Notes: a model not told the origin generated them from the letters alone. A stretch of DNA of 16,126 nucleotides from Clostridium sp. CAG:793 (GCA_000433915.1 HF993645.1:1-16126), one strand, 5' to 3'; counted from the stretch's first letter, positions 328 to 15,119 are shown. Numbers and translations: made by a program.

Positions 328-2244
328 ATGGAAAAATATAACCACGCATACGGTGCAAATCAAATACAAGTATTAGAAGGACTCGAAGCAGTTAGAAAAA
401 GACCAGGAATGTATATTGGAAGTGTATCAATTAGAGGATTACATCACTTGGTATATGAAATTGTAGATAACTGTGTAGATGAAGCTTTAGCAGGATATTG
501 TGACCGCATAGAAGTAAAAATTGAACCAGGTAACATAATATCTGTTGAAGATGATGGAAGAGGAATTCCAGTTGACATACATCCTAAAACTCACATCTCA
601 GCCGCAGAAACAGTTTATACAGTATTGCATGCCGGTGGAAAATTTGGAGGAGATAGTGGATATAAAGTATCTGGTGGACTTCATGGAGTTGGAGCATCCG
701 TAGTAAATGCATTATCAGAATGGACTGAAGTAACAATACAAAGAGATGGCGGAATCTTCCAAATGAAATTTGAAAGAGGAAAAACAGTAGAGAAACTAAC
801 AAAAATAGGAGAATCAAATAAAACTGGAACTCGTGTTAGATTTTTGGCTGATGGAACTATATTTGAAACATTAAACTATGATTATGACACTTTAGAAGAC
901 AGATTCAGAGAAATGGCATTTTTAACTAAAGGATTATATATTAGCATTGAAGACTTAAGAGGTGAAACACCTAAAAAAGCAGAATTTTGCTTTGAAGGAG
1001 GATTACGTTCTTTTGTTGAATATTTAAATAAAAATAAAGAAAAAATAAATCCAGAGCCTATATATATTGAAAAAACAAATGCAGAAATACCAGTAGAAAT
1101 TGCACTACAATATACAACTGCATATAATGAAAATATATATTCATTTGTCAATAATATAAATACAATAGAGGGTGGAACACACCTAGAAGGATTTAAAAGA
1201 GCATTAACAAAAGTATTTAATGATTATGCAAGATCACATGGAATATTAAAAGAAAAAGACAATAATTTACAAGGTGAGGATATCAGAGAAGGACTTACAG
1301 CTGTTATTTCCGTAAAGGTTAAAGAACCACAATTTGAAGGACAGACAAAAACAAAACTTGGAAATAGTAATGTCACAGGAATTGTACAATCAATAGTAGT
1401 GGATGCATTAAGCACATATTTAGAAGAAAATCCTACTGTTGCAAAATCAATATTAGAAAAATGCGTTAGTGCATCACACGCACGTGAAGCAGCAAGAAAA
1501 GCAAGAGAACTAGTTAGAAAGAAAAGCTCACTAGAAGTAACAACATTACCAGGAAAATTAGCAGATTGTAGTAGTAAAAATGCAGATGAGTGTGAAGTTT
1601 ATATCGTAGAGGGAGACTCTGCTGGAGGAAGTGCAAAGCAAGGAAGAAATAGAAAATATCAAGCAATTTTACCGTTATGGGGAAAAATGCTTAATGTTGA
1701 AAAATCAAGAGCTGATAAAATCTATAATAATGATAAATTAAAACCAGTTATACAAGCTATTGGAGCAGGAATAGGAGCTGACTTTGATGTAACTAAAATA
1801 CGTTATGGTAAAGTTGTAATTATGGCAGATGCCGATGTTGATGGAGCACATATTAGAACATTATTATTAACATTCTTCTTTAGATATATGAGACCTCTAA
1901 TAGAACAGGGACATGTATTTTTAGCACAACCCCCTTTATATAAAGTATCAAAAAAAGGAATAAAAGATGTATACTGCTATACAGATGAAGAATTAGATGA
2001 AGAACTTGAAAAAATAGGAAGAGATAATGTATCAATACAAAGATATAAAGGACTTGGAGAAATGAATCCAGAACAACTATGGGAAACAACTATGGATCCA
2101 GAAAATAGAATATTTGTAAAAGTTACAATGGATGATGCAATAAAAGCTGATCAAATATTTACTATTCTTATGGGAGATGAAATTGAACCTAGGAGACAAT
2201 TTATAGAAAAAAACGCAAAATTTGTAAAAAACTTAGATGTATAG
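328..2244 (+). CDS. gyrB: DNA gyrase subunit B
   Basis: 638-aa ORF with GHKL ATPase motifs ([37 protein letters not shown]), Toprim motifs ([30 protein letters not shown]) and a C-terminal [23 protein letters not shown] lies 10 nt upstream of the ATG. TAG stop. Confidence 0.97.
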
Positions 2245-2332
2245 AAATAATGTTTTTGACAAAAAAAGACATTATTCGACAAACACAAATTTAAATGAAA
2301 GACTTAGAACTGTAACGAAAAATATAAAAAAC

Positions 2333-2370
2333 AAACAGCATGTAATAGTAGTATTACATGCTGTTTTGTC
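2333..2370 (+). terminator. Rho-independent terminator after gyrB
   Basis: Perfect 15-bp stem AAACAGCATGTAATA (2333-2347) / TATTACATGCTGTTT (2352-2366), 4-nt loop GTAG, followed by a short T-run (TTTTG). Confidence 0.7.
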
Positions 2371-2392
2371 GATTTATGTCGAACGATTTTTG

Positions 2393-2421
2393 TTGACATC
2401 TTATGGAAACCGTAGTATCAT
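2393..2421 (+). promoter_or_regulatory. Candidate sigma-A promoter of the VirB4-like block (TTGACA-N17-TATCAT)
   Basis: TTGACA at 2393-2398, 17-nt spacer, TATCAT at 2416-2421. AAAGGAGAA SD (2431-2439) and ATG 2442 lie downstream. Confidence 0.55.
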
Positions 2422-2441
2422 AAAAACAAGAAAGGAGAAAA

Positions 2442-2975
2442 ATGAAACTTGAACAAATCCATTCTGTTCAAAATTGGCTTCCATTCGAAAAGATTTTAGA
2501 GAAAGGAATAGTAAAATTAAAAGACAACTCCTATATAAAAATATTAAATATAAGTCCAATAAATTATATACTAAAATCAGATTTAGAAAAAGAAGCGATT
2601 TTAAATTCATATAACAATATTTTTAAAAATTGTAATTTTAATATGCAAATATTAGTGCAAAGCAAAAAAATAGATTTATCTAATCATATAAAAAAAATAA
2701 AAAGTAATTCCTTCCAACAGAACTTAAAAGAAAAATATATAGATTATATAAATCAATATGTATCAACAAAAAAATCATCAAACAAAAAATTTTATTTAAT
2801 AATAAAAAGTCCAAAAGAAGAACAAGAAGAATCAGTAATTTTACAAAATTTGCAAGAAAATTACATAAAAGTCAGAGATTTATTTTCAAGATGTGGAAAC
2901 TTGGTATCTGAATATACAGAAGAAAAACAAATTTATGAGATTTTACACTCATTCTTTTATTCAACAAAAAATTAA
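2442..2975 (+). CDS. VirB4/PrgJ/TcpF-type T4SS ATPase, N-terminal domain fragment (ends at an in-frame TAA)
   Basis: 177 aa. The N-terminus (NWLPFEKILEKGIVKLKDNSYIKILNISPINYILKSDLEKEAILNSYNNIFKNCNFNMQILVQSKK) follows the pattern I recall for the N-terminal domain of Gram-positive VirB4-like conjugation ATPases. Good SD and ATG. Same reading frame as the next ORF. Confidence 0.7.
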   Translation: MKLEQIHSVQNWLPFEKILEKGIVKLKDNSYIKILNISPINYILKSDLEKEAILNSYNNIFKNCNFNMQILVQSKKIDLSNHIKKIKSNSFQQNLKEKYIDYINQYVSTKKSSNKKFYLIIKSPKEEQEESVILQNLQENYIKVRDLFSRCGNLVSEYTEEKQIYEILHSFFYSTKN

Positions 2976-3062
2976 AATAATAACAAAAGAGGTGGAAATA
3001 TAGATAATTATATAGGAGGAACATTTTCAAAAAGGGATTATTTAAGTCCGTCATATATTAAC

Positions 3063-4748
3063 TTGAATAATCCCAAATATATTGAAATTGACGGAACATA
3101 TTATTCAAGTCTAATAATAGTAAACTATGTAAGAGAACAAAATGATTTAATATTTCAAAATATTATTGATACAGATGAAAATATTTATTTATCAATATTT
3201 TACGAAAAACAGGACACTTACAAAGTAATAAAAGATTTAACATATAATATTGGAAATGTAGGAGTTGATCTGGAAAACATAGGAAAAAGTAGACAAGACT
3301 ATGAAATTGCAGCATTTACGTATAATGACGCAAAATACATAAGAAAACAACTACAAATTGATAATGAAGAATTATACTACATATACACGTATGTTACAGT
3401 ATTTTCAAACAATAAAAAAGATCTAGAATATAAAACAAATAAAATTGAAGGATTATTAAGAAGTAGAGGAATGCAAACTAAAAAAGCATATTTTAGACAA
3501 GAACAAGTGTATCAGGCAAGTCTTCCATTATTAATAAATAGTAAAGATATAAAAGAAGTATCAAAAAGAAACATTTTAACTAGCTCTATATCAGCGACTT
3601 ATCCTTTAATATCATCATCATTATTTGATGAAAATGGAATATTTATAGGAACTAATGTATATAACAATTCATTAATTTTCATAGATAAATATAACAGAAA
3701 TAAATATAAAAATTCAAACATGTGTATATTTGGAACAAGTGGTTCAGGAAAATCATTTTTTACAAAATTAATGATATTAAGAAACAGTTTAATGGGATTG
3801 GAACAATATATAATTGATCCAGATAGAGAATATAATAAACTAGCAGAAGAATTAAATGCATCTATTATAAAATTAGGAGCAAGCTCAGAAAGTTATATTA
3901 ATATTTTTGATATTAGAGAAGAAAGCTTAGAAGAAGATCAAAAAGGTTATCTAGCAACAAAAATAAATAAATTAATTAATTTTTTCAATTTAATTTTTAA
4001 TTCAATGACAGAAATAGAAAAATCAATATTAGAAGAAAAAATAATACAAATATATGAAGAAAAGGGGATAACTTTTAATGATAAAACACTATACAAAAAT
4101 AAAAAATTCAAAACCACAAAAGATATGCCAATACTTGAAGATCTATATAATAAACTCGAAGGAAATTTAAAAACAAGATTAAAACCATTTGTTTATGGGT
4201 CACTAAGCTATCTAAACAAACATACAAATGTAGAATTAAATAATTCAATAATAATTGCAGATATTTATGAACTAGGAGAAGAAAACATTAAATTTGGAAT
4301 GTATATTTTTATAGAATTATTTTGGGATAAAATAAAAAAAGATAGAAAAATAAAAAAATCAATTTATTTAGATGAAATATGGAAACTAATTGGGGTAACG
4401 TCAAACAAAGACGTAGCAAGCTTTATTTACAAAATTTTTAAAACAATAAGAAAATATGGAGGTAGTGCAGTTGCAATAACACAAGACATATCAGACTTAT
4501 TTAGCTTAGAAAATGGAACCTATGGAAAAAGTATATTAAACAACTCAGAAATAAAAACATTTTTTTATCTTGAAGAAGAAAATATAAAAATATTAGAAAA
4601 ATATTTAAATATTTCACAAAAAGAAAAATTAGAAATAAATTCATTAAAGAGAGGAGAATGTGTAATGTTTGTAGGAAAAGAACACATATTAGCAAAAATT
4701 GAATCTGCAGATTTTGAAAAAGAAATAATAGGAGGTGAAAATAATTAA
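3063..4748 (+). CDS. VirB4/PrgJ/TcpF-type T4SS ATPase, central and C-terminal P-loop part
   Basis: 561 aa from a TTG with no SD. Walker A IFGTSGSGKSFF, Walker B SIYLDEIW, AITQDISDL motif. The frame is actually open from 2976, directly after the TAA of the upstream ORF. The 29 intervening codons read NNNKRGGNIDNYIGGTFSKRDYLSPSYIN. The true start is uncertain. Confidence 0.8.
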   Translation: MNNPKYIEIDGTYYSSLIIVNYVREQNDLIFQNIIDTDENIYLSIFYEKQDTYKVIKDLTYNIGNVGVDLENIGKSRQDYEIAAFTYNDAKYIRKQLQIDNEELYYIYTYVTVFSNNKKDLEYKTNKIEGLLRSRGMQTKKAYFRQEQVYQASLPLLINSKDIKEVSKRNILTSSISATYPLISSSLFDENGIFIGTNVYNNSLIFIDKYNRNKYKNSNMCIFGTSGSGKSFFTKLMILRNSLMGLEQYIIDPDREYNKLAEELNASIIKLGASSESYINIFDIREESLEEDQKGYLATKINKLINFFNLIFNSMTEIEKSILEEKIIQIYEEKGITFNDKTLYKNKKFKTTKDMPILEDLYNKLEGNLKTRLKPFVYGSLSYLNKHTNVELNNSIIIADIYELGEENIKFGMYIFIELFWDKIKKDRKIKKSIYLDEIWKLIGVTSNKDVASFIYKIFKTIRKYGGSAVAITQDISDLFSLENGTYGKSILNNSEIKTFFYLEEENIKILEKYLNISQKEKLEINSLKRGECVMFVGKEHILAKIESADFEKEIIGGENN

Positions 4749-5859
4749 GAACGTTATAACTGCAATAGGAAACCAAAAATTAATAAAGGATTTAAAAGAA
4801 AATCAAATAAATGTATTATGCAATGATATTTCATATAGAGAAGGAATATTAGAATTCTTAGAAGTAAATAAAAATATTGATTATATTATAATAAACGAAA
4901 AAATAGAAGGAGAAATACCAATAGAAGAATTAATTGAAAAAATAAAAGAATCAAATAGAAAAATAAAAATAATTTTAATAAGTGATAGTAAAAGAAGATA
5001 TAATAAAATTCATTATAAAATGAATAAAATTGATGAAAGAAAAATAGTAGAAATTATAAATAATAATGTAATGAGTAAAAAGACTATACCAATAAATAAT
5101 TTTTTTTCAGAAGAAACTAAAGATGGAAAAATACTCACAATATTAGGCGCAAATGGAATAGGAAAAAGTATATTTTCAGTAACATTTGCAGCAAACATTA
5201 AAGATAAAAAGGTATTAATAATAGACTTTGATATTTTAAATAATAGTTTACAATATTTATTAGCGGTAAAAAATTATGATAAAGATATAAAAAATAAAAT
5301 AATGAAAAATAATTTAAATTCAAATATCAATATAAATGACTATGTAATAAAAACAAAATATAATGTTGACCTAATATCAGGAGTAAATTTAATTTTTAAT
5401 AATGCAAAACAATCAAGTATTACAAAAATAAAAAATACAATAAAACAAGCAAAAAAATTATATGATTTAATAATAGTAGATACTTCATCAGAATGCTTTA
5501 TGGATTATACAAAAGAAATGATAAAGATGTCAAATCAATCAATATTAATATCAGGGGCTAATTCATTAGAAATAAAGAAAGCAAAAAAATTATTACAAAT
5601 ATATACTGAAGAATGGAACATTGCAAAAGAACAACTAAATATTATATTTAATAAATGCACAAAATATTCAATTGACGATGAGATTTTAAAAGGAGTATTT
5701 AAAGGATATAATATTTTAGGAAAAATAAAGTTAGATGATTATTATGATTTAGTAATTAATAAACAATCAAATCAAGAAAAAGTAATAAAAGAAGAACTAT
5801 CATATATAAGAGAAAAAATATTAAATAAAAAGATTAAAGAACAAATGAAAAGGAGGTAA
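4735..5859 (+). CDS. Pseudo-receiver + ParA/MinD-family P-loop ATPase (TadZ/CpaE-like architecture)
   Basis: The N-terminal ~120 aa resemble a CheY-like fold but lack the acceptor Asp (DYIIINEKIEG). The C-terminal part has a deviant Walker A ILGANGIGKS and hydrophobic-Asp Walker B motifs (VLIIDFD, LIIVDTS). Overlaps the VirB4-like stop by 14 nt. The start codon is uncertain because GTG 4735 lies inside the SD. Confidence 0.65.
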   Translation: MKIIKNVITAIGNQKLIKDLKENQINVLCNDISYREGILEFLEVNKNIDYIIINEKIEGEIPIEELIEKIKESNRKIKIILISDSKRRYNKIHYKMNKIDERKIVEIINNNVMSKKTIPINNFFSEETKDGKILTILGANGIGKSIFSVTFAANIKDKKVLIIDFDILNNSLQYLLAVKNYDKDIKNKIMKNNLNSNININDYVIKTKYNVDLISGVNLIFNNAKQSSITKIKNTIKQAKKLYDLIIVDTSSECFMDYTKEMIKMSNQSILISGANSLEIKKAKKLLQIYTEEWNIAKEQLNIIFNKCTKYSIDDEILKGVFKGYNILGKIKLDDYYDLVINKQSNQEKVIKEELSYIREKILNKKIKEQMKRR

Positions 5860-5899
5860 TTAAATAGAAGCAATATTAACAAATCAATTAGACAATACC

Positions 5900-6601
5900 A
5901 TGCAAAATGAGATAACAAACACCATACAAATAGCAAAAGAACAAAACAATTTTTTAGAAACAACAATAGGAAAATTAATAAATACAGGAATAAATACTGG
6001 ATTAAGAGTATTATTACCAGATTTAATAGAAGACCAGATTATATCAATTAAAGATGAAATAATAAAAAACGGATTTAAAGCAGGAATACAGCAAACTGTC
6101 TCATCAGCAATAGAATTAGGAAAAAGTGTAGTAGGTATGGTGACTGGTAAATTTGATAATATAAATCAAGCACAAACTGTAATAAAATCAGGAGGTCTAA
6201 TAGATACAGTATCAAATTTACTTGACAAGGGAATAAATACAACAATAAAAAATAATATAATTTCTACAAATGTAGGCAAAGTAATAAAAAGAGGAAAAAA
6301 TACCATATTAAATACCATAAGCAATAATATAGAAAATAATTTTACAAGCCAAATAAATAGTATAGAAAAAATTAATAAATATTCAAACAATTGGAATAAT
6401 TATTATAAAAATAAAGACCTAGATGGAATGGAAAGAGAATATAAAAAAATCAAAGAAAAATTAAAAGAAACAATGCCATTAGAAAAAACAATAATAGATG
6501 CTAGAAAAATTGAAAATATACATAAACTAATAAAAAACAATGGAGGAAATTTTAATTTAAGTGCAGAAGAAATTGGACTGGCTCAAAAATTAATATACTA
6601 A
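5900..6601 (+). CDS. Hypothetical protein, predicted soluble and helical, N/K/I-rich
   Basis: 233-aa ORF with no TM segment or signal peptide. Co-oriented and tightly packed with the preceding ATPase genes. No motif I can assign. ATG 5900 lacks an SD, and the frame is open from 5864. Confidence 0.5.
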   Translation: MQNEITNTIQIAKEQNNFLETTIGKLINTGINTGLRVLLPDLIEDQIISIKDEIIKNGFKAGIQQTVSSAIELGKSVVGMVTGKFDNINQAQTVIKSGGLIDTVSNLLDKGINTTIKNNIISTNVGKVIKRGKNTILNTISNNIENNFTSQINSIEKINKYSNNWNNYYKNKDLDGMEREYKKIKEKLKETMPLEKTIIDARKIENIHKLIKNNGGNFNLSAEEIGLAQKLIY

Positions 6602-6661
6602 ATTTCAATAAAATTAATACTCTCAAATATGCTGTAAATTAATAAAAAAAGCAATTTTTCC

Positions 6662-6690
6662 TTGCAATTTTAAAAGGACTTTAGTATAAT
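6662..6690 (+). promoter_or_regulatory. Candidate sigma-A promoter of gyrA (TTGCAA-N17-TATAAT)
   Basis: TTGCAA at 6662-6667, 17-nt spacer, consensus TATAAT at 6685-6690. GAAAGAGGT SD and ATG 6727 lie downstream. Confidence 0.55.
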
Positions 6691-6726
6691 AAAGAAGTAA
6701 AAAATAGCTAGGAAAGAGGTAAACAA

Positions 6727-9222
6727 ATGGACAAGAAAGAAGAACCAGAGTTCAAAGAAGGAAAGATAATTAATAGAGACATTGAAGAAGAAATGAAAAC
6801 TGCCTATATTGATTATGCGATGAGCGTAATTGTTCAACGTGCTCTTCCAGATGTAAGAGATGGTTTGAAACCAGTACATAGAAGAATTTTATATACAATG
6901 TATGAAGATGGATTAACTACTGAAAAGCCATACAGAAAATCAGCTACAACAGTAGGAGATGTTTTAGGTAGATATCATCCACATGGAGATTCATCTGTTT
7001 ATGATGCAATGGTTAGACTAGCACAAGATTTCTCACTTAGATATCCTTTAATTGATGGACATGGAAATTTTGGATCAATTGATGGAGATGGAGCAGCTGC
7101 ATACCGTTATACAGAAGCAAGAATGTCAAAAATAGCAGAAACAATGCTAACAGACATAGAAAAAAATACTGTAGACTTTATGCCAAACTTTGATGGTATA
7201 AGACAGGAACCAACTGTTTTACCAGCTAAATTACCAGCTTTGTTAGTAAATGGATCATCAGGAATAGCAGTAGGAATGGCAACAAATGTTCCACCACATA
7301 ATTTAACAGAAATATTAAATGCTGTTATTAGAATGGTTGAGCTAAAAGAAAAATCAGAAGAAATAACTGACGAAGAATTATTGAAAATAGTAAAAGGTCC
7401 AGATTTTCCAACAGGAGCAACAATTTTAGGAAGAGAAGGAATAAAACAAGCATATTTAACAGGAAGAGGAAAAATATTATTAAGAGCTGAAGCTGAAATT
7501 GAAGAAATGTCAGGAAATAGACAAAGAATAGTAGTATCTTCACTTCCTTATCAAGTTAATAAAGCAAAATTAATAGTAGACATAAATCAATTAGTAAGAG
7601 ACAAGAGAATAGAAGGTATATCAGAAGTTAGAGACGAATCTGATAGAGAAGAAAAAGTAAGAGTTGTTATAGAATTAAAGAGAGATGTAAATGCTAAAGT
7701 AATATTAAACCAATTATACAAAAACACTCAATTACAAGATTCTTTTGGAATAATAATGCTTGCTTTAGTTGATGGTGTTCCAAGAATCCTTACATTAAGA
7801 CAATGCTTAGATTATTATATAGAACATAGAAAAAATGTAATAGTACGTAGAACTAAATTTGACTTAGATAAAGCACTTGCAAGAGCTCATATATTAGAGG
7901 GATTAAGAATTGCAATTGATAATATTGATGAAGTAATCAGAATAATTAGAAATTCTTATGATGATCCAAAAGAACAATTAATGAAGAGATTTGGATTAGA
8001 TGATATACAAGCCCAATCAATATTGGATATGAGATTAAAGACTTTATCAGGTTTACAAAGAGAAAAGATAGAAGAAGAATATCAAGCTCTTATGAAACTA
8101 ATAGCTCATTTAAGAGAAATATTGGCAAACGATAATTTAGTTGATGACATTGTAAAAGAAGAATCTCTAGAAATGAAAGAAAAATATGGAGATGAAAGAA
8201 AAACTAAGATTGTTGCTGCAGCAGATGAATTTGAAGATGAGGATTTAATTGCAGAAGAACAATCAATTATAGCATTAACTAGATTTGGATATATTAAAAG
8301 AATGCCATTAGACACATATAAAAGCCAGAAACGTGGAGGAAAAGGAATTACAGGAATTACAACAAGAGAAGATGATTTTGTAAAACAAATATTTACAGCA
8401 TCAACACATGATATAATTCTATTCTTTAGCAATAAAGGTAAGCTATATAAACTAAGAGGATTTGAAGTTCCAGAAGCAGGAAGAACTGCAAAGGGAACAG
8501 CAATAGTTAACTTGCTATCATTAGATGGTGGAGAAAAAATTACAGCAGTAATTCCAATTAAAGAATTTTCAGAAAATCAATTTTTATTAATGGGTACAAA
8601 AAATGGATTAATTAAAAAGACACCTTTAAAAGAATATGATTCTGGAAAGAAAACGGGGTTAATGTCAATTAACTTAAAAGAAGACGATGAATTAATTGAT
8701 GTAAGACTAACAGAAGGTGAAAATAACATTGTAATGGTAACAAGAAAAGGCCTATGTATTACATTTAATGAAAAAGATGTTCGCCCAATAGGAAGAACAT
8801 CACAAGGTGTTCTTGGAATAAGAATAGATAAAGACGATAGTGTTATCGGAATGGAAACAATTAATGCTAATAGCAAAGGAACATTACTTGCAATAACAGA
8901 AAACGGATTTGGAAAAAGAACTGAATTAGACGAATACCGTGTACAAGCAAGAGGTGGAAGAGGAGTAGTTACATACAAAATCACATCTAAGACCGGAGAA
9001 ATTGTAGGAATAAGAATTACTGGAGAAGACGACGATATATTAATGATTACAGATACAGGAACAGTAATAAGAATAAAAGCTTCGGAAATAAGTGTACTAG
9101 GAAGAAATACTCAAGGAATAACATTAATGAGAACGAGCGATGGAGGAAAAGTAGTTAGCATTGAAAAAGTAAACGATAATGACACAGAAGAAATAGAAAA
9201 AGAAGACGAAAAAAATAAATAA
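6727..9222 (+). CDS. gyrA: DNA gyrase subunit A
   Basis: 831 aa. Contains [35 protein letters not shown] (Ser and Asp at the positions equivalent to E. coli S83/D87, i.e. wild-type-like), catalytic-Tyr context [11 protein letters not shown], GyrA box QKRGGKG (argues gyrase rather than ParC) and an acidic C-terminal tail. Confidence 0.97.
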
Positions 9223-9225
9223 AAT

Positions 9226-9272
9226 AAAAAACTTATACACATAATGTAAACAAAATGTGTATAAGTTTTTTT
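9226..9272. terminator. Bidirectional rho-independent terminator between convergent gyrA and the dnaC/dnaI-like gene
   Basis: 12-bp perfect stem ACTTATACACAT (9231-9242) / ATGTGTATAAGT (9255-9266) with a 12-nt loop. An A-run lies 5' and a T7 run 3', so it can terminate from either direction. Confidence 0.75.
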
Positions 9273-9284
9273 AATTTCATCAAT

Positions 9285-10289
9285 TTAAACTTTTAATTTT
9301 TTCTTAATACGAATATCATCTCCGAAAAAATAACAAGCATTATAATTACCAATGATTCTAGAAACTATTCTTTCTTCATAAGTATTATATAAATCTTGCA
9401 AAGATAAATTCGTAGAAATAATAGTCTTAGTTATTTTATTATTTTGATTCAATAAACGAGTATTGATAATATTAAACAATTCAGTAATTTTTAAATTGTT
9501 TTTAGATTCAGTTCCTAAATCATCTATAATTAATAAATCAACAGAATTAATTGAACTTATAATATTATTACTACTTTTTCCAAATTTATAATCAATTATA
9601 TTATCTAGCATCATAGGAGCAGTTTGATATAATACAGTCTTTCCACGCTTTATCATCTCATTAGCAATGCATGAAGAAAGAAAAGTTTTACCTAAACCAG
9701 GACTGCCACAAAATAATAAATTGCTTTCATCAGGATCATCAAAATGATCGATAAAATGCTGACAAATCTTCTTTATAGATATAATATTATCTCTAGGAGA
9801 TATATTTTTACCATATTTATATTCATCAACTAAATCAGAATAAAAACTTAGTCTGAAATTATCAAAATTTTGATTTTGCAAATCATAAATATTTGAATGA
9901 TTATATTCAATATTATATAACTTTTGCTTTATACAATTACAAAGAACATTATTATTATTTTGCTTAACAAATCCAGTATCTTTACAAATTGGACAATCGA
10001 ATTTAGGCAAGAAATCATCTTGAGAAAGATTATGCTTTTTTAAAATATCCAATTTTTGAGACTTTAAACATGCAATTTGCTTATTTAAATTGTCAATTAA
10101 AGATTTATCACGAGTAGTTAAAATTAATTTAATAGCTTTAATTGATAAAGAATTTATATCATTTTCAACTTTTTCTAATTCCGGAATAGAAGAAATAATC
10201 TTCTCTTTTTTTAAATTTGCATCGGCAATTTTTGAATTTCTCTTTCTTTCATAATTGGCTAACAAAGACTTTAAATTATCATTATTCAT
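9285..10289 (-). CDS. DnaC/DnaI-like replicative helicase loader (AAA+, IstB-like ATP-binding)
   Basis: 334 aa. Cys cluster CPICKDTGF...CNC (zinc-binding N-domain as in DnaI), Walker A CGSPGLGKTF, Walker B LLIIDDLGTE, sensor-like TIISTN. SD GAGGTGAT sits before the ATG. Confidence 0.85.
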   Translation of the reverse strand: MNNDNLKSLLANYERKRNSKIADANLKKEKIISSIPELEKVENDINSLSIKAIKLILTTRDKSLIDNLNKQIACLKSQKLDILKKHNLSQDDFLPKFDCPICKDTGFVKQNNNNVLCNCIKQKLYNIEYNHSNIYDLQNQNFDNFRLSFYSDLVDEYKYGKNISPRDNIISIKKICQHFIDHFDDPDESNLLFCGSPGLGKTFLSSCIANEMIKRGKTVLYQTAPMMLDNIIDYKFGKSSNNIISSINSVDLLIIDDLGTESKNNLKITELFNIINTRLLNQNNKITKTIISTNLSLQDLYNTYEERIVSRIIGNYNACYFFGDDIRIKKKLKV

Positions 10290-10317
10290 AACATCACCTC
10301 GCTTTCATAAAAAGACA

Positions 10318-11289
10318 TTAAATATTACTGTAAAAACTATTTAAATTATTATAATTTCTTTGAGGATAATTTGCAGAAGCATTGCCAGAGTTAGTAGAAC
10401 TACTAGAATTCTTTTGAACTGGAATATTTTTCTGCTTTTCAATATATTCTAATACTTGAGAAGAAGTCTTTAAACCTCTTTCGTGCCAATCAGAAATTAA
10501 CTTATCAAGGTATTCAAAACTAGGATTAAACTTAGAAGTAGTCTTTTTCAAAGCAATATCAATAATATCTAAACCATATCCGTAAGTCAAATTCCATTTT
10601 TCAATATATGCTTCTTCATAAACAGATAAATTACGAGCAATACGCATCTTCTTTCTAATAGAATTACCAATAGACTTTAATTTTTCTTCTTTCTGATAAT
10701 ATAAATCTAAGTCACTAAAAGTTTTAATTTTATTTTTATTCCAAGCCTCAGCGACAGTTGAAATATAAGATCTATGTAAAGCTGATTTATTAAAACAATA
10801 TCTAAATAGTGCAATCATAACCTCTTCGTCAAAACCATATTTCTTGAACCATAAATCAATATCGCCATACCAAGATGGAGACATAACGCCTTGAAAGAAT
10901 TCATTATTAATTGTATCAATAGCTTTAGCTCTGTACTTGTTTTCAGCTACTTTCTTAACGTCTTGAGCAGACATAGAAATTCTAGGCTTATAAACCTTAT
11001 TCAATTCTATTTCTTGTAAATTAGCAACAATAAAGCCTTGATTTTTACGAATCAAAAGACCTGCTTCTTCCCAATACTTAACTGCATCTTGAATTATTTT
11101 AAGAGGCAATTCCAATTTTTTAGATAAATCATTTATCTTCACATCTTTATTATATTTAGACAAAAAATAAAGATATAAATAAACTTTTACAAAGTCACCA
11201 CTAGCCTGTGAAAGATACTCTGTAAAAAAAACATCTGGAATACTAGTCTGTGAAAAAATTAAAGATACATCATTTTGCTCTAGTTTCAT
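10318..11289 (-). CDS. DnaD-domain replication initiation protein (DnaB/DnaD-like, two DnaD-type repeats)
   Basis: 323 aa with an N-terminal winged-helix-like region and two DnaD-like C-terminal repeats (WFKKYGFDEEVMIALFRYC...YISTVAEAWNKNKIKT and YGYGLDIIDIALKKT...YLDKLISDWHERGLKT). TAGGAGGTAATT SD and ATG. Immediately upstream of the loader gene, like the dnaB-dnaI arrangement. Confidence 0.8.
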   Translation of the reverse strand: MKLEQNDVSLIFSQTSIPDVFFTEYLSQASGDFVKVYLYLYFLSKYNKDVKINDLSKKLELPLKIIQDAVKYWEEAGLLIRKNQGFIVANLQEIELNKVYKPRISMSAQDVKKVAENKYRAKAIDTINNEFFQGVMSPSWYGDIDLWFKKYGFDEEVMIALFRYCFNKSALHRSYISTVAEAWNKNKIKTFSDLDLYYQKEEKLKSIGNSIRKKMRIARNLSVYEEAYIEKWNLTYGYGLDIIDIALKKTTSKFNPSFEYLDKLISDWHERGLKTSSQVLEYIEKQKNIPVQKNSSSSTNSGNASANYPQRNYNNLNSFYSNI

Positions 11290-11310
11290 AATTACCTCCT
11301 AACAAAGCGA

Positions 11311-11339
11311 ATTATATCATTGTTTATACTTTTTTACAA
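11311..11339 (-). promoter_or_regulatory. Candidate extended -10 promoter for the dnaD/dnaI-like pair (TTGTAA-N17-TGaTATAAT)
   Basis: Minus strand reads TTGTAA (11339-11334), 17-nt spacer ending in TGA, then TATAAT (11316-11311). It lies in the 92-nt gap between the PrgI-like gene and the DnaD-like gene. Confidence 0.55.
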
Positions 11340-11381
11340 CTATTAAAAAGATAAAAAATGATGGTAATAGATAACATACAG

Positions 11382-11660
11382 TTAAAAATAAAGATATATT
11401 TTAGGCTTAATTAAAAACTTTAAAATATAAAAAAGCGAATATAGAATATTTTCATGATTAAAACCAACAATACTAAAAAGAAAAATTGGAAAATAAAAAA
11501 CAATAATAAAAATAATTCTAATATTTATACTAGAGAAAAGTAAATAATTAATACCAAAAATAATTAAAAAATATATAACATTAAAAATTGCAGTAGGATA
11601 ATCTATAATACCAAGCAATTTATTCTTAAAAGAATAATTAGAAGGAAAAATAAAATTCAA
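11382..11660 (-). CDS. PrgI/VirB3-like small T4SS membrane protein
   Basis: 92 aa with two hydrophobic helices. The C-terminal FNHENILYSLFYILKFLIKPKIYLY resembles the PrgI-family tail. TTG start 6 nt after a GAGGTG SD that overlaps the upstream stop codon. Confidence 0.55.
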   Translation of the reverse strand: MNFIFPSNYSFKNKLLGIIDYPTAIFNVIYFLIIFGINYLLFSSINIRIIFIIVFYFPIFLFSIVGFNHENILYSLFYILKFLIKPKIYLYF

Positions 11661-11672
11661 AAAATCACCTCA

Positions 11673-12536
11673 CTATTTCTTAAAAAACGAAAGAACATTA
11701 CCAAATTGATTAGAAACATCTATTCCAACACCACCAAACAACTCTCGAACATAACTATTAATTTTAGTCAAAGCATAAATTCCTCCAATAAACAAAATTT
11801 TATTCGAAAAATCAATTGAGAAAATAACTATTAAAACAATAGGAATAAAACATTGAATTATCAATAAAGAAAACATACACTTAAACCATGATCTAAAAAT
11901 CCAAGAAGTAGAAGAAACAATAAGACTTAGAAGAGCAAAAGGTGTAAACAATAAAAATACTTGTAAAATAATGTATCTTAAAGAATATGAAAAAAGTAAA
12001 TTCATTAAGCCAACACTTACAAAACTCTTGATTATTCCAGAGATAGAAAACAGATCAAAGGAAGATTCACCAACAGAAACAGTACGGTTAAGCTGAGTAA
12101 TCAATTCAGAAAAAGAAATATCAATTCCTAAAATATTCTTACCAATTTCCTGAATAGAAGAAGAGAACAATAAGTTAATATTAAGAACTTGCTCGCATAA
12201 AAAATATGAAAAATTAACTAAAAAAGTAAAAATAATAAGCTTAAAAATAAACTGGCTAGGTTTTTCAATATTAGTTTCAACATAATTAGCATAAAAAAAT
12301 TTAACACAATAAAACATAGAAATAGCAACAAGCATTGCATCAGCCAAATAAATAAGTCCATATTTTCCATTAGCACCAAGCAATTTTTCAAAAGAAGAAT
12401 TTTTAATAATATCTGGCCCAATAAAAATAACACTATCAAGACTAGAATACATACTATTATCAATTGAGGAAATAATATTACCTAATATAGTATTTATAGT
12501 ATCAATAATTATATTAACAATTTCACCTTTTTCCAC
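11673..12536 (-). CDS. VirB6/TrbL-like polytopic T4SS membrane protein
   Basis: 287 aa with about 5-6 predicted TM helices and a soluble N-terminal stretch. GTG start 5 nt after a GGAGA SD. Flanked by the pilin-like and VirB3-like genes. Confidence 0.55.
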   Translation of the reverse strand: MEKGEIVNIIIDTINTILGNIISSIDNSMYSSLDSVIFIGPDIIKNSSFEKLLGANGKYGLIYLADAMLVAISMFYCVKFFYANYVETNIEKPSQFIFKLIIFTFLVNFSYFLCEQVLNINLLFSSSIQEIGKNILGIDISFSELITQLNRTVSVGESSFDLFSISGIIKSFVSVGLMNLLFSYSLRYIILQVFLLFTPFALLSLIVSSTSWIFRSWFKCMFSLLIIQCFIPIVLIVIFSIDFSNKILFIGGIYALTKINSYVRELFGGVGIDVSNQFGNVLSFFKK

Positions 12537-12597
12537 AAAATCTCCATAAATATAAATTTAGATTCTAAAGAAGAACCTATAAGACTTTTATTAAAAT

Positions 12598-12622
12598 CTG
12601 TACACCTGTAATAGGTGTACAG
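12598..12622 (-). terminator. Intra-operon hairpin (attenuator or stabiliser) immediately after the pilin-like gene
   Basis: Perfect 10-bp stem CTGTACACCT / AGGTGTACAG with a 5-nt loop. It starts 2 nt after the TAA stop (12627-12625) and is followed on the minus strand by ATTTTAAT. Confidence 0.55.
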
Positions 12623-12624
12623 CA

Positions 12625-12954
12625 TTATATTAAAGACTCAATTGCTGATAGAATTAAATCAAGAGCAAGGAATAAAGCATAGGCAACAAAAGAGCCTCTA
12701 ATAATTTTCTTTGACATACGAATACGCTCTTCATCTCCAAAACTAAATTTTTTCATAAAAAGACCTGCTCCAACAGCAACAGCAGCTGCTGGAGTTGCCA
12801 GCTTTAAAAGCCAACTTTTAATATCCTTAAAAGCAGAAGAAAGTTTAGTAACCAATTTAGGCGTAGCTGCAAAAGAAAATGGCATAAAAATAGAAAATAA
12901 AAAACAAACAATAAAAACAAATACACAAATTTTTATTAGTCGTTTTTTTCTCAA
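12625..12954 (-). CDS. VirB2/TrbC-like pilin-type small membrane protein
   Basis: 109 aa. Basic N-terminus plus hydrophobic signal peptide ending SFA|AT, then two hydrophobic helices (ATPAAAVAVGAGLFM and FVAYALFLALDLILSAI) separated by a charged loop. This is VirB2/TrbC topology. TTG start 6 nt after GGAGG. Confidence 0.55.
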   Translation of the reverse strand: MRKKRLIKICVFVFIVCFLFSIFMPFSFAATPKLVTKLSSAFKDIKSWLLKLATPAAAVAVGAGLFMKKFSFGDEERIRMSKKIIRGSFVAYALFLALDLILSAIESLI

Positions 12955-12968
12955 AATAAACCTCCAAT

Positions 12969-14429
12969 CTATTTAATAAAATAAGGAATCATCTGCAATT
13001 CTGTAGGAGGTAAAATCTTATTACCATCAGATAAAAAAGATAAACAATGAAAAGTAGATAACTCCTGAGTAAAAAAATGATAATCATATTTAAATTCTAA
13101 TTGAGAATAAGAATTTAAACTCTCAGAATAACTTGAATCACTACTAATAAACTTTTTAGAAAGAGGATTATAAGAACTATGCTTAGAATTTTCAGAAAAA
13201 GATCTTGAAAAATGTTCACGTTCTTCTTTGCCAATTTGCTTCTGAATATCTTCAATAGTAAAAATATCATCACTTCTAAACCATAACTTATTAACCAAGC
13301 TCTGAATAATTACTTTAGAAGCATATTGATTATTAAGACTATTAAGTATAGAAGTATAGCTTTGAGTGGCAACAATATTAATACATTTTGCTTCTCTACT
13401 TTGAGAAAAAAATGATGCATCAGATGAAGTAACATATTCTTGATATTCATCAGAAATAAACACAGAAGGTCTAATTAAATTACAGGAATGATTAGACAAC
13501 TGCTCCAAAACATCAGATTGAAAATCTAACTTCAAATATGCTGCAATAATCTTAGATAAATTCTTATACTTTGCAATATTCATATTCAAAATAACGATTT
13601 TTCCAGAATGTAAAGCATCATGAAAACCACAAAAATTTTCATCTTCTTTAGAAGGACAAAAAGTATTTTTAACATCTAAATTAGACACAAAACAATTTGT
13701 GATTCTAGTAATTTCTGACTGAAGTATATGCAAATTTCTATCATCAAGAGAATAAAAATCATTCTCAAGAAAACTAATAGATCTGTATAAATTAAATATA
13801 TCAACATCCGAAAGTTTACGAGAAATAAAATAATCTCGAACAATAGAAAGTTTGGATAAATAATAAGAATGATCAGTAATCAAATTATGCAATTCATCGA
13901 AAGAGACATATCCATCATTATAAATTCTACAAAAACTAATACATGCTTCAATAACTTGTTCAGACTTATCAATCCAAAAAGACTCAGAATTATTAGGCGA
14001 GAACAATAGTAAAATCTCTTTAAGCCTATTAGCCAAGACAGATGGTAAGAGCGAAGGCTTGTCTAAAGGATTGTAGCGATATTTACCATTAATCTCAATA
14101 ACAATTACATCATTTAATCTGTTACAATCATGTGCAAACTCAAGTACTTTAGAATAATAATTTCCTTTAACATCAAGTATTAGAAGAAATAATTTGCTAT
14201 CAAAATCATTATCAAAATAATCAATCAATTGTCTTGTAAAAGGGTACAAAGCAGACGCAGTTTTACCAGATCCAATAGTACCAGTAACAAGAAAATTTTG
14301 ATACAATCCACTTTCTGGAACAAACACAGGATTATCATTCATATCATTTCCAATATATAAGCCGAAAAGTAGGAGCTTTATAAATAAGTAAATTATTCTT
14401 ATTATAGTTAAGAAAATAAGAAAAAACAA
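12969..14429 (-). CDS. T4SS coupling-protein-like ATPase (VirD4/TraG/TraD family)
   Basis: Walker A VTGTIGSGKT, ILDVKGNY, Walker B-like VFISDEYQEY, then SREAKCINIVATQSYTSI (TraG-D_C-like). The 14429 start is a TTG inside the upstream ORF. An alternative ATG at 14342 (MNDNPVF...) lies 1 nt after the upstream TGA and gives about 457 aa. Confidence 0.7.
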   Translation of the reverse strand: MFFLIFLTIIRIIYLFIKLLLFGLYIGNDMNDNPVFVPESGLYQNFLVTGTIGSGKTASALYPFTRQLIDYFDNDFDSKLFLLILDVKGNYYSKVLEFAHDCNRLNDVIVIEINGKYRYNPLDKPSLLPSVLANRLKEILLLFSPNNSESFWIDKSEQVIEACISFCRIYNDGYVSFDELHNLITDHSYYLSKLSIVRDYFISRKLSDVDIFNLYRSISFLENDFYSLDDRNLHILQSEITRITNCFVSNLDVKNTFCPSKEDENFCGFHDALHSGKIVILNMNIAKYKNLSKIIAAYLKLDFQSDVLEQLSNHSCNLIRPSVFISDEYQEYVTSSDASFFSQSREAKCINIVATQSYTSILNSLNNQYASKVIIQSLVNKLWFRSDDIFTIEDIQKQIGKEEREHFSRSFSENSKHSSYNPLSKKFISSDSSYSESLNSYSQLEFKYDYHFFTQELSTFHCLSFLSDGNKILPPTELQMIPYFIK

Positions 14430-14595
14430 ATTTAAGAATTATAAAATTGGCAATAAATGAAAATAATATAAATAAACCTCTTGTGAATAACCATAAAGTA
14501 GGATTAGTAATAAGAAAATTAAAAATTCTAAAATTACTATAATAATTAATAGCCTTAGAAAAAAGTATAGGCTTAAAAAGCAAAATTATTAACAC
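14344..14595 (-). CDS. Small hydrophobic protein, possible detached or frameshifted N-terminal TM domain of the coupling protein
   Basis: 83 aa from GTG 14595, which has no SD. The frame is open up to 14649, with an AGGAGGA SD at 14640-14634. At least one TM helix (LFILFSFIANFIILKFVFSYFL). It overlaps the coupling-protein ORF in another frame. Confidence 0.4.
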   Translation of the reverse strand: MLIILLFKPILFSKAINYYSNFRIFNFLITNPTLWLFTRGLFILFSFIANFIILKFVFSYFLNYNKNNLLIYKAPTFRLIYWK

Positions 14596-14744
14596 CTGGG
14601 TTAAGCACAGTAAAAAAGCAAAAAGAATATTAATCCTCCTTTCTAAATTTTAGTTTTAACTTGGAACCTAAAAGATTATGAAAAATTGATATTTGTAAAA
14701 AACTATAAAAAGAATAAATACAAATAAGAAAATTAATAATAAAA

Positions 14745-14773
14745 ATTATAAAAAATAAATCAAGTAAAGTCAA
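14745..14773 (-). promoter_or_regulatory. Candidate sigma-A promoter of the minus-strand T4SS operon (TTGACT-N17-TATAAT)
   Basis: Minus strand reads TTGACT (14773-14768), 17-nt spacer, TATAAT (14750-14745). It lies about 100 nt upstream of the AGGAGGA SD at 14640-14634. Confidence 0.55.
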
Positions 14774-14854: not shown

Positions 14855-14933
14855 AAAATAATATAGATATGACAAAAAAGGACAAGAAGATACAAAAAGT
14901 GACATATGCACTTCTTGGGAAAGGAAAAGAAAA

Positions 14934-15119
14934 ATGGAATTCAACAAAGACACAAAAATCGGAGAATTACTAGAGAAAGCTCCAGAAAAAGCAGACATTT
15001 TATTAGAAGCAGGAATGCATTGCCTAGGATGCCCAGCATCACAAGCAGAAACGCTTGAAGAAGCATGCATGGTACATGGAATAGATGTTGAAGAAGTATT
15101 AAAAGAATTAAATAAATAA
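14934..15119 (+). CDS. DUF1858 / hybrid-cluster-protein-associated redox disulfide domain protein
   Basis: 61 aa. IGELLEKAPEKADILLEAGMHCLGCPASQAETLEEACMVHGIDVEEVLKELN matches the GMHCxGCP...ETLEEA...HGID signature of this family. GGAAAGGAAAAG SD region lies upstream. Confidence 0.85.
   Translation: MEFNKDTKIGELLEKAPEKADILLEAGMHCLGCPASQAETLEEACMVHGIDVEEVLKELNK

Follow-up and report, generated by a model that had tools for sequence, protein, structure and literature searches.

This study concerns a set of type IV secretion system (T4SS) genes in a 16,126-nucleotide stretch of DNA from Clostridium sp. CAG:793 (GCA_000433915.1 HF993645.1:1-16126), a human-gut metagenomic species; the whole of this stretch is referred to as the window. 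The window has a G+C content of approximately 25%, follows the standard bacterial code, and encodes proteins identical to entries CCY99928-CCY99937. Its T4SS genes were found to form two convergent blocks on opposite strands, which are parted by gyrA and by the dnaD and dnaI genes. A first-pass annotation had proposed this layout, which the gene calls confirm, and the T4SS genes that it named are present at or near the positions that it gave, with support from family searches that is weak in the case of the VirB6-like and VirB3-like proteins. The family assignments draw on profile matches in Pfam, NCBIfam and the PDB, on hhalign, Foldseek and tblastn, and on AlphaFold2 models. The best NCBIfam matches are the CD1110 family of VirB4 proteins and the CD1115 family of VirD4 proteins, at scores below the NCBIfam cut-offs.

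A VirB4 profile scan of one genome per species yielded 561 stretches encoding a relative, and the window proteins were placed on the best 80 of these, with counts that cover only the loci reaching the gene in question. All 80 come from uncultured gut Clostridia of humans, mice, rabbits, chickens and ruminants. Gene order and orientation are identical across these species-level genomes, although their gyrB genes differ by 8-19%. The genes for the TrsD-like protein, VirB4 and a 233-residue protein lie between gyrB and gyrA in 60/60 of the loci holding both gyrase genes, with a match to the ParA-type protein in 59 of them. The two membrane genes of the second block were found in 39 of the 40 loci reaching 2 kb past dnaD, and the pilin and coupling-protein genes in all 31 loci reaching further. 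The open reading frames (ORFs) of the T4SS are intact as often as those of gyrB and gyrA, and the catalytic motifs are invariant. The T4SS genes have pairwise dN/dS values of 0.19-0.51, compared with 0.23-0.32 for dnaD and dnaI and 0.13 for the gyrase genes; all of these are overestimates because the synonymous sites are near saturation. Purifying selection on the T4SS genes is thus comparable to that on dnaD and dnaI. The first-pass annotation had named sporadic, degraded copies in relatives as the sign of a dead remnant, and the opposite was seen. Five loci (L006, L007, L043, L047 and L051) carry insertions of 3-6 kb at the block boundaries, past the 233-residue gene or past gyrA and ahead of the conserved gene that comes next, and their T4SS genes are undisturbed. 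The dnaD and dnaI genes are inverted in L061, and in L084 the two membrane genes were not found within 2.7 kb past dnaD.

Block 1 opens with a promoter-like site (2393..2421, + strand), TTGACA-17-TATCAT, which matches the consensus at 11 of 12 positions. Across species, a sigma-70-type site lying 20-30 nt before the first block 1 gene reaches at least 10/12 in 59 of 77 loci, compared with 35 of 225 random control windows. The first gene of the block (2442..2975, + strand) encodes a TrsD-like protein of 177 residues, in which the N-terminal domain of VirB4 stands on its own. Its matches are positions 1-167 of the NCBIfam CD1110 VirB4 model (E 2.8e-9) and, by hhalign, residues 124-302 of a fusion of PrgI and VirB4 encoded by a Vescimonas replicon (probability 98.4%, E 7.8e-15). 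Its orthologues bear the TraC-like domain PF26593, and the ORF is intact in 81/81 loci. The following gene (3000..4748, + strand) encodes the C-terminal two thirds of VirB4. Its profile matches VirB4 in the PDB (4ag5, E 1.6e-50), the CD1110-family VirB4 of NCBIfam (7.5e-82) and P-loop_TraG of Pfam (5e-23), its Walker A and B residues (GxxGxGKS and DE) are invariant among 13 sequences, and the ORF is intact in 85/85 loci.

The region from 2442 to 4748 had previously been read as a single virB4 gene. The family assignment holds, but two genes are present, at 2442-2975 and approximately 3000-4748. The break between them is not a nonsense mutation, because in 52 of 78 relatives the two genes do not share a frame, and the virB4 gene has its own ribosome-binding site. 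Genetic code 4 was also rejected as the cause, since the stop codon is TAA and translation with table 4 leaves the two ORFs unmerged. The likely start of VirB4 is an ATA codon at 3000, after AAGAGGTGG, whereas the ORF lister chose a TTG at 3063. Some related species have ATG at this position, and a conserved Shine-Dalgarno sequence precedes the gene. Several genes of the clade seem to start in this manner, with ATA or ATT (Ile) in place of the ATG of relatives, downstream of a good Shine-Dalgarno sequence; examples are 3000-3002 of the window and the first block 1 genes of L034, L048, L068 and others. ORF finders restricted to ATG, GTG and TTG shorten or miss such genes.

The third gene of block 1 (4735..5859, + strand) had been described as a ParA-type ATPase. 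This is correct for its C-terminal half, which matches MinD/ParA proteins in the PDB (1ion; best 1.9e-9) and corresponds to AAA_31 in the orthologues. The protein as a whole is TadZ/CpaE-like rather than a plain ParA, with a receiver-like domain at its N-terminus. Residues 4-229 align with a protein bearing Response_reg and CbiA domains that is encoded beside RcpC in a conjugative relative (L091, described below), and the P-loop residues G138, G141, G143 and K144 are invariant. The block ends with a 233-residue orphan (5900..6601, + strand), an all-helical protein devoid of signal peptide and membrane segment, for which Pfam, NCBIfam and the PDB gave no match. Its AlphaFold2 model (pLDDT 75.5) is all alpha, and Foldseek returned no match below E 0.5. 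The protein has 1935 homologues, and none of the 120 listed bears a Pfam domain. Homologues also end the distant chromosomal VirB4 clusters of L090 and L092, and are not found in L091.

Block 2 is encoded on the - strand, behind a promoter-like site (14745..14773), TTGACT-17-TATAAT, which matches at 11/12 positions in the window sequence. The first-pass annotation had proposed one near-consensus promoter per block; both sites bear this out, and conservation across species was shown for that of block 1. The first gene of block 2 is that of the coupling protein, a VirD4/TraG-type ATPase. Its ATPase domain ORF (12969..14438, - strand) gave marginal matches to TrwB_AAD_bind (1.4e-4) and TraG-D_C (3e-4) when the window copy was searched alone, whereas 13/13 orthologues match both families, at best 1.2e-11 and 1e-7. 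The protein is 38.5% identical (E 6e-97) to the coupling protein of L091, and D327 and E328 of its Walker B motif are invariant. The earlier assignment of a coupling ATPase at 14429-12969 therefore stands as to family. The gene is not intact, however, as it is frameshifted: the N-terminal membrane segment (14344..14649, - strand) lies in another frame than the ATPase ORF, and a tblastn search with the 549-residue orthologue of L003 splits over the two frames. The frameshift is specific to this species and the sequence is identical in three independent assemblies, while other species have a single ORF of approximately 545-570 codons. The gene could yield two polypeptides, undergo a programmed shift, or be in early decay.

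Next in block 2 is a gene (12625..12954, - strand) for the 109-residue precursor of a VirB2-like T4SS pilin. Among 20 orthologues, 19 match PF18895 (T4SS_pilin, best 1.2e-5) and four match TrbC/VirB2. The signal peptide is variable, and the mature part, two hydrophobic helices around a charged loop, is nearly invariant; dN/dS is 0.23. Between this gene and the next, a strong hairpin with a stem of 10-11 bp (12598-12622) could act as an attenuator that raises the proportion of pilin. It was rejected as a conserved feature, being absent in other species, where the gap is mostly just 14-50 nt. The next gene (11673..12536, - strand) encodes a polytopic VirB6/TrbL-like membrane protein of 287 residues, for which the evidence is weak and concordant. 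One of 20 orthologues matches PF04610 (TrbL/VirB6), at 4.5e-4; the top four Foldseek matches of its model (pLDDT only 49.6) in the PDB are TrwI/VirB6 of R388 (7o3v_F, E 0.036, probability 0.99); and the protein is 23% identical (E 2e-7) to a 316-residue protein of the L091 T4SS. The last gene of the block (11382..11660, - strand) encodes a PrgI/VirB3-like protein of 92 residues with two hydrophobic helices. It has no match in Pfam or NCBIfam, aligns by hhalign with the PrgI domain of the Vescimonas fusion at a weak score (E 2e-4, probability 46%), and is 31% identical (tblastn E 2e-5) to the product of the small gene directly upstream of virB4 in L091. PDB sequence searches with the profiles of the VirB6-like protein, the pilin, the coupling protein and the 233-residue protein gave nothing useful, and the coupling protein had no match to TrwB.

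Several genes expected of a conjugative element were not found. The search covered the window, 7-10 kb beyond it and 10 kb on either side of the related loci, and not whole genomes. As the first-pass annotation had noted for the window, no relaxase, integrase, hydrolase or VirB8-like gene was detected in it or in the 7-10 kb beyond. Within about 10 kb of the related loci, no relaxase, integrase, DDE recombinase or hydrolase was found, nor a VirB8-like gene, and MobC was absent from every locus examined. The T4SS locus itself encodes neither a hydrolase of the VirB1/PrgK/TrsG kind nor an NTF2-like protein, as a VirB8-like PrgL or TraM would be. No ComEC, DprA or similar gene lies near the T4SS locus. 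A search for att repeats gave nothing convincing, only AT-rich direct repeats of 75-91% identity and no exact flanking pair.

Relatives of the machine outside the clade were sought with VirB4 among 1.84 billion cluster representatives. The closest share 64, 52, 51, 48, 45, 44 and 43% identity, and all others at most 37%; among 72,556 plasmids, the nearest VirB4 is only 33% identical. The relative at 44%, L091, is a 47-kb metagenomic contig that encodes a relaxase (PF03432), MobC/NikA and a methylase. Here, a PrgI-like gene directly precedes a fused VirB4 of 849 residues, followed by T4SS_pilin, the coupling protein, Peptidase_M23 and a VirB6-like protein. This is the canonical contiguity, with prgI directly before virB4, against which the first-pass annotation had set the window, and the relaxase, MobC and peptidoglycan hydrolase come with it. 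Seven window proteins (PrgI-like, TrsD-like, VirB4, pilin, coupling, VirB6-like and ParA-type) match this contiguous cluster, so that L091, as the conjugative form with relaxase, MobC and M23 peptidase, shows what the chromosomal version lacks. The L091 T4SS also carries a CpaE-like protein beside RcpC: over 5426-22550 of the locus, the T4SS genes adjoin these Tad pilus genes. This suggests that T4SS and Tad pilus travel together in the L091 family of elements; the order TANB77, to which we return below, has both in fixed form.

The relatives at 52% (L089), 48% (L090), 45% (L093) and 43% (L094) are chromosomal, with VirB4 beside gyrB or gyrA. The link to the gyrase genes is thus old, and the genes were split into two blocks later, by rearrangement. 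L090 has its coupling-protein block upstream of VirB4, with both on one strand. In L089, whose sequence ends inside dnaD, block 2 and the dnaD gene that follows it are inverted together onto the opposite strand, so that at least dnaD moved with block 2 as a unit. The relatives thus make up a graded series from a contiguous conjugative element, through a contiguous chromosomal cluster beside gyrA, to the split form. More distant chromosomal loci (L092 and L095, 35-37%) have VirB4, a ParA-type gene, a T2SSE ATPase and a T2SSF-like gene, away from gyrA. VirB4, a ParA-type gene and a T2SSE ATPase (VirB11/CpaF-like) occur together at 13124-14419 of L090, 12930-15004 of L092 and 5892-8019 of L095. 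A T2SSF-like membrane protein is encoded in L092, and unannotated genes of 314 and 328 codons are found in L090 and L095, respectively; a homologue of the 233-residue orphan closes the cluster in L090 and L092. We could not place this hybrid of VirB4 and pilus-type genes in any known class.

With regard to the surroundings, block 1 is bordered on the left by gyrB (328..2244, + strand), which encodes a full-length GyrB of 638 residues identical to CCY99928.1. A terminator-like hairpin with a 15-bp stem (2333..2366) lies between gyrB and block 1; it was flagged on the - strand only, the T tail on the + strand being weaker. gyrA (6727..9222, + strand) separates the blocks; in 60/60 loci it comes after block 1 and shares its strand. 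It is succeeded by the gene for a DnaC/DnaI-type helicase loader (9285..10289, - strand; NCBIfam PRK06835, 3.7e-97, 325 bits against a cut-off of 215) and by that for a DnaD-domain protein (10318..11289, - strand; Pfam DnaB_2, 3.5e-26, and TIGR01446), which lies directly downstream of block 2 and is co-oriented with it. In relatives, dnaA-dnaN-recF is found directly upstream of gyrB, preceded by a divergent rpmH-rnpA-yidC-jag group, and the T4SS locus therefore sits in the origin region. That block 1 runs in the direction of gyrA, and block 2 in that of dnaD and dnaI, may reflect just gene dosage or co-transcription near the origin, and any functional tie of the T4SS to the replication genes is speculation. 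The G+C content is 19-26% in the T4SS blocks and 27-32% in the gyrase genes, and no abrupt edge of an island is seen. The sign of the GC skew flips where gyrA and dnaI converge, at approximately 9200-9300, and the cumulative skew peaks near 9250. This change tracks gene orientation, the origin being upstream of gyrB; the genes from dnaI to tRNA-Thr would consequently run against the fork, if the origin adjoins dnaA. The G+C-richer stretch at 14900-15100 was rejected as a structured RNA, as Rfam was empty even at E 1; it corresponds to a DUF1858 gene of 61 codons (14934-15119, + strand) between the T4SS and an SDR gene. In L086-L088, a few kb past the T4SS and approximately 4-6 kb beyond the point where the window ends on the right, genes encode a LexA-like repressor (HTH_3 and Peptidase_S24) and a VanW/G5 peptidoglycan-binding protein. 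Hydrolases known from T4SS include neither of them.

The host belongs to the genus CAG-793, which one paper assigns to the GTDB phylum Firmicutes_A, and we take it to be a member of the order TANB77. The VirB6-like family includes Clostridium sp. CAG:508, its gene being found on contigs of 1.2-1.34 Mb, and CAG-508 is a major family of that order. TANB77 is an order of uncultured Clostridia with reduced genomes and unusual G+C content that is prevalent in the gut and linked to the response to cancer immunotherapy (PMC11680825). The same paper describes a conserved Tad pilus cluster and makes no mention of VirB4 or T4SS. The conserved "pilin" that it reports was rejected as a description of the present locus, as it belongs to the Tad cluster, at a different locus. 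The two systems resemble each other in being clade-wide, the Tad (type IVc) cluster in single copy, and in having TadZ/CpaE-like ParA ATPases. The Tad cluster, reported as exclusive to TANB77, differs in its location and in its machine, which comprises CpaB, TadA/CpaF, TadB/C and type IV-like pilins. A literature search pairing TANB77 with T4SS or VirB4 found nothing relevant, and the machine is apparently unreported for this clade.

Among published systems, the nearest analogue, which the first-pass annotation did not name, is found in Patescibacteria: a T4SS that has no relaxase and lies near the origin (PMC12102498). It derives from monoderm conjugation systems, combines TrsD next to VirB4 with VirB3, VirB6 and VirB2-like pilins, and is often located near dnaA; in one Saccharimonadia species, growth as an epibiont requires it but not its coupling protein (PMC12102498). 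The present locus shares with the system of Patescibacteria (CPR) a separate TrsD-like protein beside VirB4, putative VirB3-like and VirB6-like proteins and VirB2-like pilins detected by PF18895, as well as a chromosomal position near dnaA, dnaN, rnpA and rpmH with no nearby relaxase, an ancestry in monoderm conjugation, and hosts that have reduced genomes and are hard to culture. In contrast, Patescibacteria have arrays of pilins and a mostly distant coupling gene, whereas here a single pilin and a coupling gene are found within the locus, the host is a lineage of Clostridia, and the two blocks are interleaved with gyrB/gyrA and dnaD/dnaI. The TANB77-type system may share ancestry with that of Patescibacteria.

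Other known systems are less similar. The MPF-FATA class (TrsD/TrsE of pGO1, CD1110/CD1115 of C. difficile CTn2) is related through the CD1110 and CD1115 matches and the homologues in L091, and the separation of the TrsD-like protein from VirB4 is the TrsD/TrsE arrangement of pGO1, also typical of Patescibacteria (PMC12102498). Unlike that class and L091, however, the window shows none of relaxase, MobC, hydrolase and VirB8-like protein, its genes are non-contiguous with prgI apart from virB4, and its inheritance is vertical. The rvh system of Rickettsiales is likewise a vertically inherited T4SS of a reduced-genome lineage, with genes scattered in chromosomal islands (PMC12102498), but its machine is of the diderm P-type, has duplicated components and is aimed at eukaryotic host cells, and the kinship is at superfamily level only. 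The ComB system of Helicobacter pylori, to which the first-pass annotation had likened the locus, is also a chromosomal, relaxase-less T4SS derivative put to non-conjugative use. To our knowledge, ComB has no VirD4-type coupling protein, acts in concert with ComEC, and operates in a diderm host with VirB7-10 components. The analogy fits poorly because the present system keeps a conserved coupling protein, and it has no outer-membrane parts.

Taken together, the locus is probably a vertically inherited, chromosomally fixed, relaxase-less T4SS that originated from a monoderm conjugative element and was repurposed by reduced-genome gut Clostridia. The proposal that it is a domesticated chromosomal T4SS-like machine, made in the first-pass annotation, is strongly supported by synteny, intact ORFs and selection. 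With the T4SS of Patescibacteria as closest published analogue, we take the window to encode a domesticated T4SS with the same kind of function, here in Firmicutes. In such a machine, the PrgI/VirB3-like and VirB6-like proteins would form a membrane translocon on which the VirB4 ATPase docks, with the TrsD-like subunit supplying the N-terminal domain of VirB4. VirB4 would supply the energy to extract the VirB2-like pilin, itself exported by Sec, and to polymerise it into a fibre or a conduit through the wall, while the VirD4-type ATPase would pick cytoplasmic cargo. The TadZ/CpaE-like ATPase may position the machine, and the 233-residue helical protein could be an adaptor or a cargo. By analogy with Patescibacteria, the apparatus would serve contact-dependent exchange of macromolecules with neighbouring cells rather than self-transfer of a mobile element.

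Several points weigh against this interpretation. The function of the machine is deduced entirely from homology and conservation, and the scores behind the VirB6-like and VirB3-like assignments are weak. The coupling-protein frameshift in the species of the window fits poorly with an essential role of that protein in selecting cargo there, and weakens the argument for export. A relaxase, hydrolase or VirB8-like gene may sit elsewhere in the genome, as the search covered flanks of approximately 10 kb. Membership of CAG-793 in TANB77 is our assumption, to which CAG:508 provides an indirect link. Finally, attachment to or dependence on other cells in TANB77 is conjecture.

It is quite unlikely that the locus encodes a working apparatus for conjugation or chromosome mobilisation, whose relaxase, oriT and hydrolase would be located at another genomic site or on elements making use of the apparatus, and that it transfers DNA between cells of the clade. 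Such a role would agree with the retention and conservation of a VirD4-type coupling protein, the presence of a ParA-like ATPase and the fact that the closest mobile relative, L091, is a true conjugative element; moreover, coupling proteins and relaxases are frequently encoded away from virB4 (PMC12102498). However, no locus examined has a relaxase or MobC within about 10 kb, strict vertical synteny in 80 species is unlike a mobile system, and the coupling-protein gene is frameshifted in the species of the window. Import of DNA or nucleotides, as in ComB or the archaeal Ced system, which could feed a reduced-genome cell or provide templates for repair, was among the suggestions of the first-pass annotation and is also unlikely. 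VirD4-type coupling proteins recruit cytoplasmic cargo for export, and we know of none in ComB or Ced; the conservation of this protein in 31/31 loci reaching it therefore argues for export of cytoplasmic cargo over ComB-like uptake. Nor is ComEC, DprA or a similar gene found nearby. The lack of a relaxase in view, the reduced genomes of the clade and the location among replication genes are consistent with import, and nucleotide acquisition has been raised as a possible need in Patescibacteria (PMC12102498).

A very unlikely explanation is that the locus encodes mainly an organelle for piliation or adhesion, working with the Tad pilus cluster described for TANB77 (PMC11680825) and translocating no cargo. 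In its favour, few parts are as conserved as the pilin, the ParA-type protein resembles TadZ/CpaE, VirB4 adjoins T2SSE and T2SSF-like genes in distant relatives, and L091 carries Tad genes. Nevertheless, building a pilus alone is not known to involve a coupling ATPase, which is conserved here, and a physical or regulatory link to the Tad locus is conjecture. The other possibility raised in the first-pass annotation, a decaying, rearranged and non-functional remnant of an integrative and conjugative element, is extremely improbable. Identical gene order and intact ORFs in 80 species with gyrB genes 8-19% apart, dN/dS well below 1, invariant catalytic motifs, the conserved block 1 promoter and the lack of att-like repeats refute it, despite the division of the genes into two blocks, the lack of relaxase, hydrolase and VirB8-like genes in view, and the frameshifted coupling-protein gene of this species.

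A domesticated T4SS in Firmicutes would extend a phenomenon so far described for Patescibacteria, and the graded series of relatives could show how a conjugation system turns into a housekeeping organelle. In the published view, the T4SS classes of Gram-positive bacteria have no VirB2 homologues; the VirB2-like pilin identified here contradicts this general statement. It is conceivable, though doubtful, that TANB77 and allied Clostridia are obligately partner-dependent, as epibionts or through some other form of contact, and that the T4SS is essential for drawing macromolecules from neighbouring bacteria or for injecting effectors into them. If true, this would be the Firmicutes counterpart of the lifestyle of Saccharibacteria and could explain resistance to cultivation. 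None of the TANB77-type Clostridia, which are prevalent in the guts of humans and animals, has ever been cultured, and a clade-wide, near-origin machine stripped of conjugation genes is a testable clue to their small-genome lifestyle.

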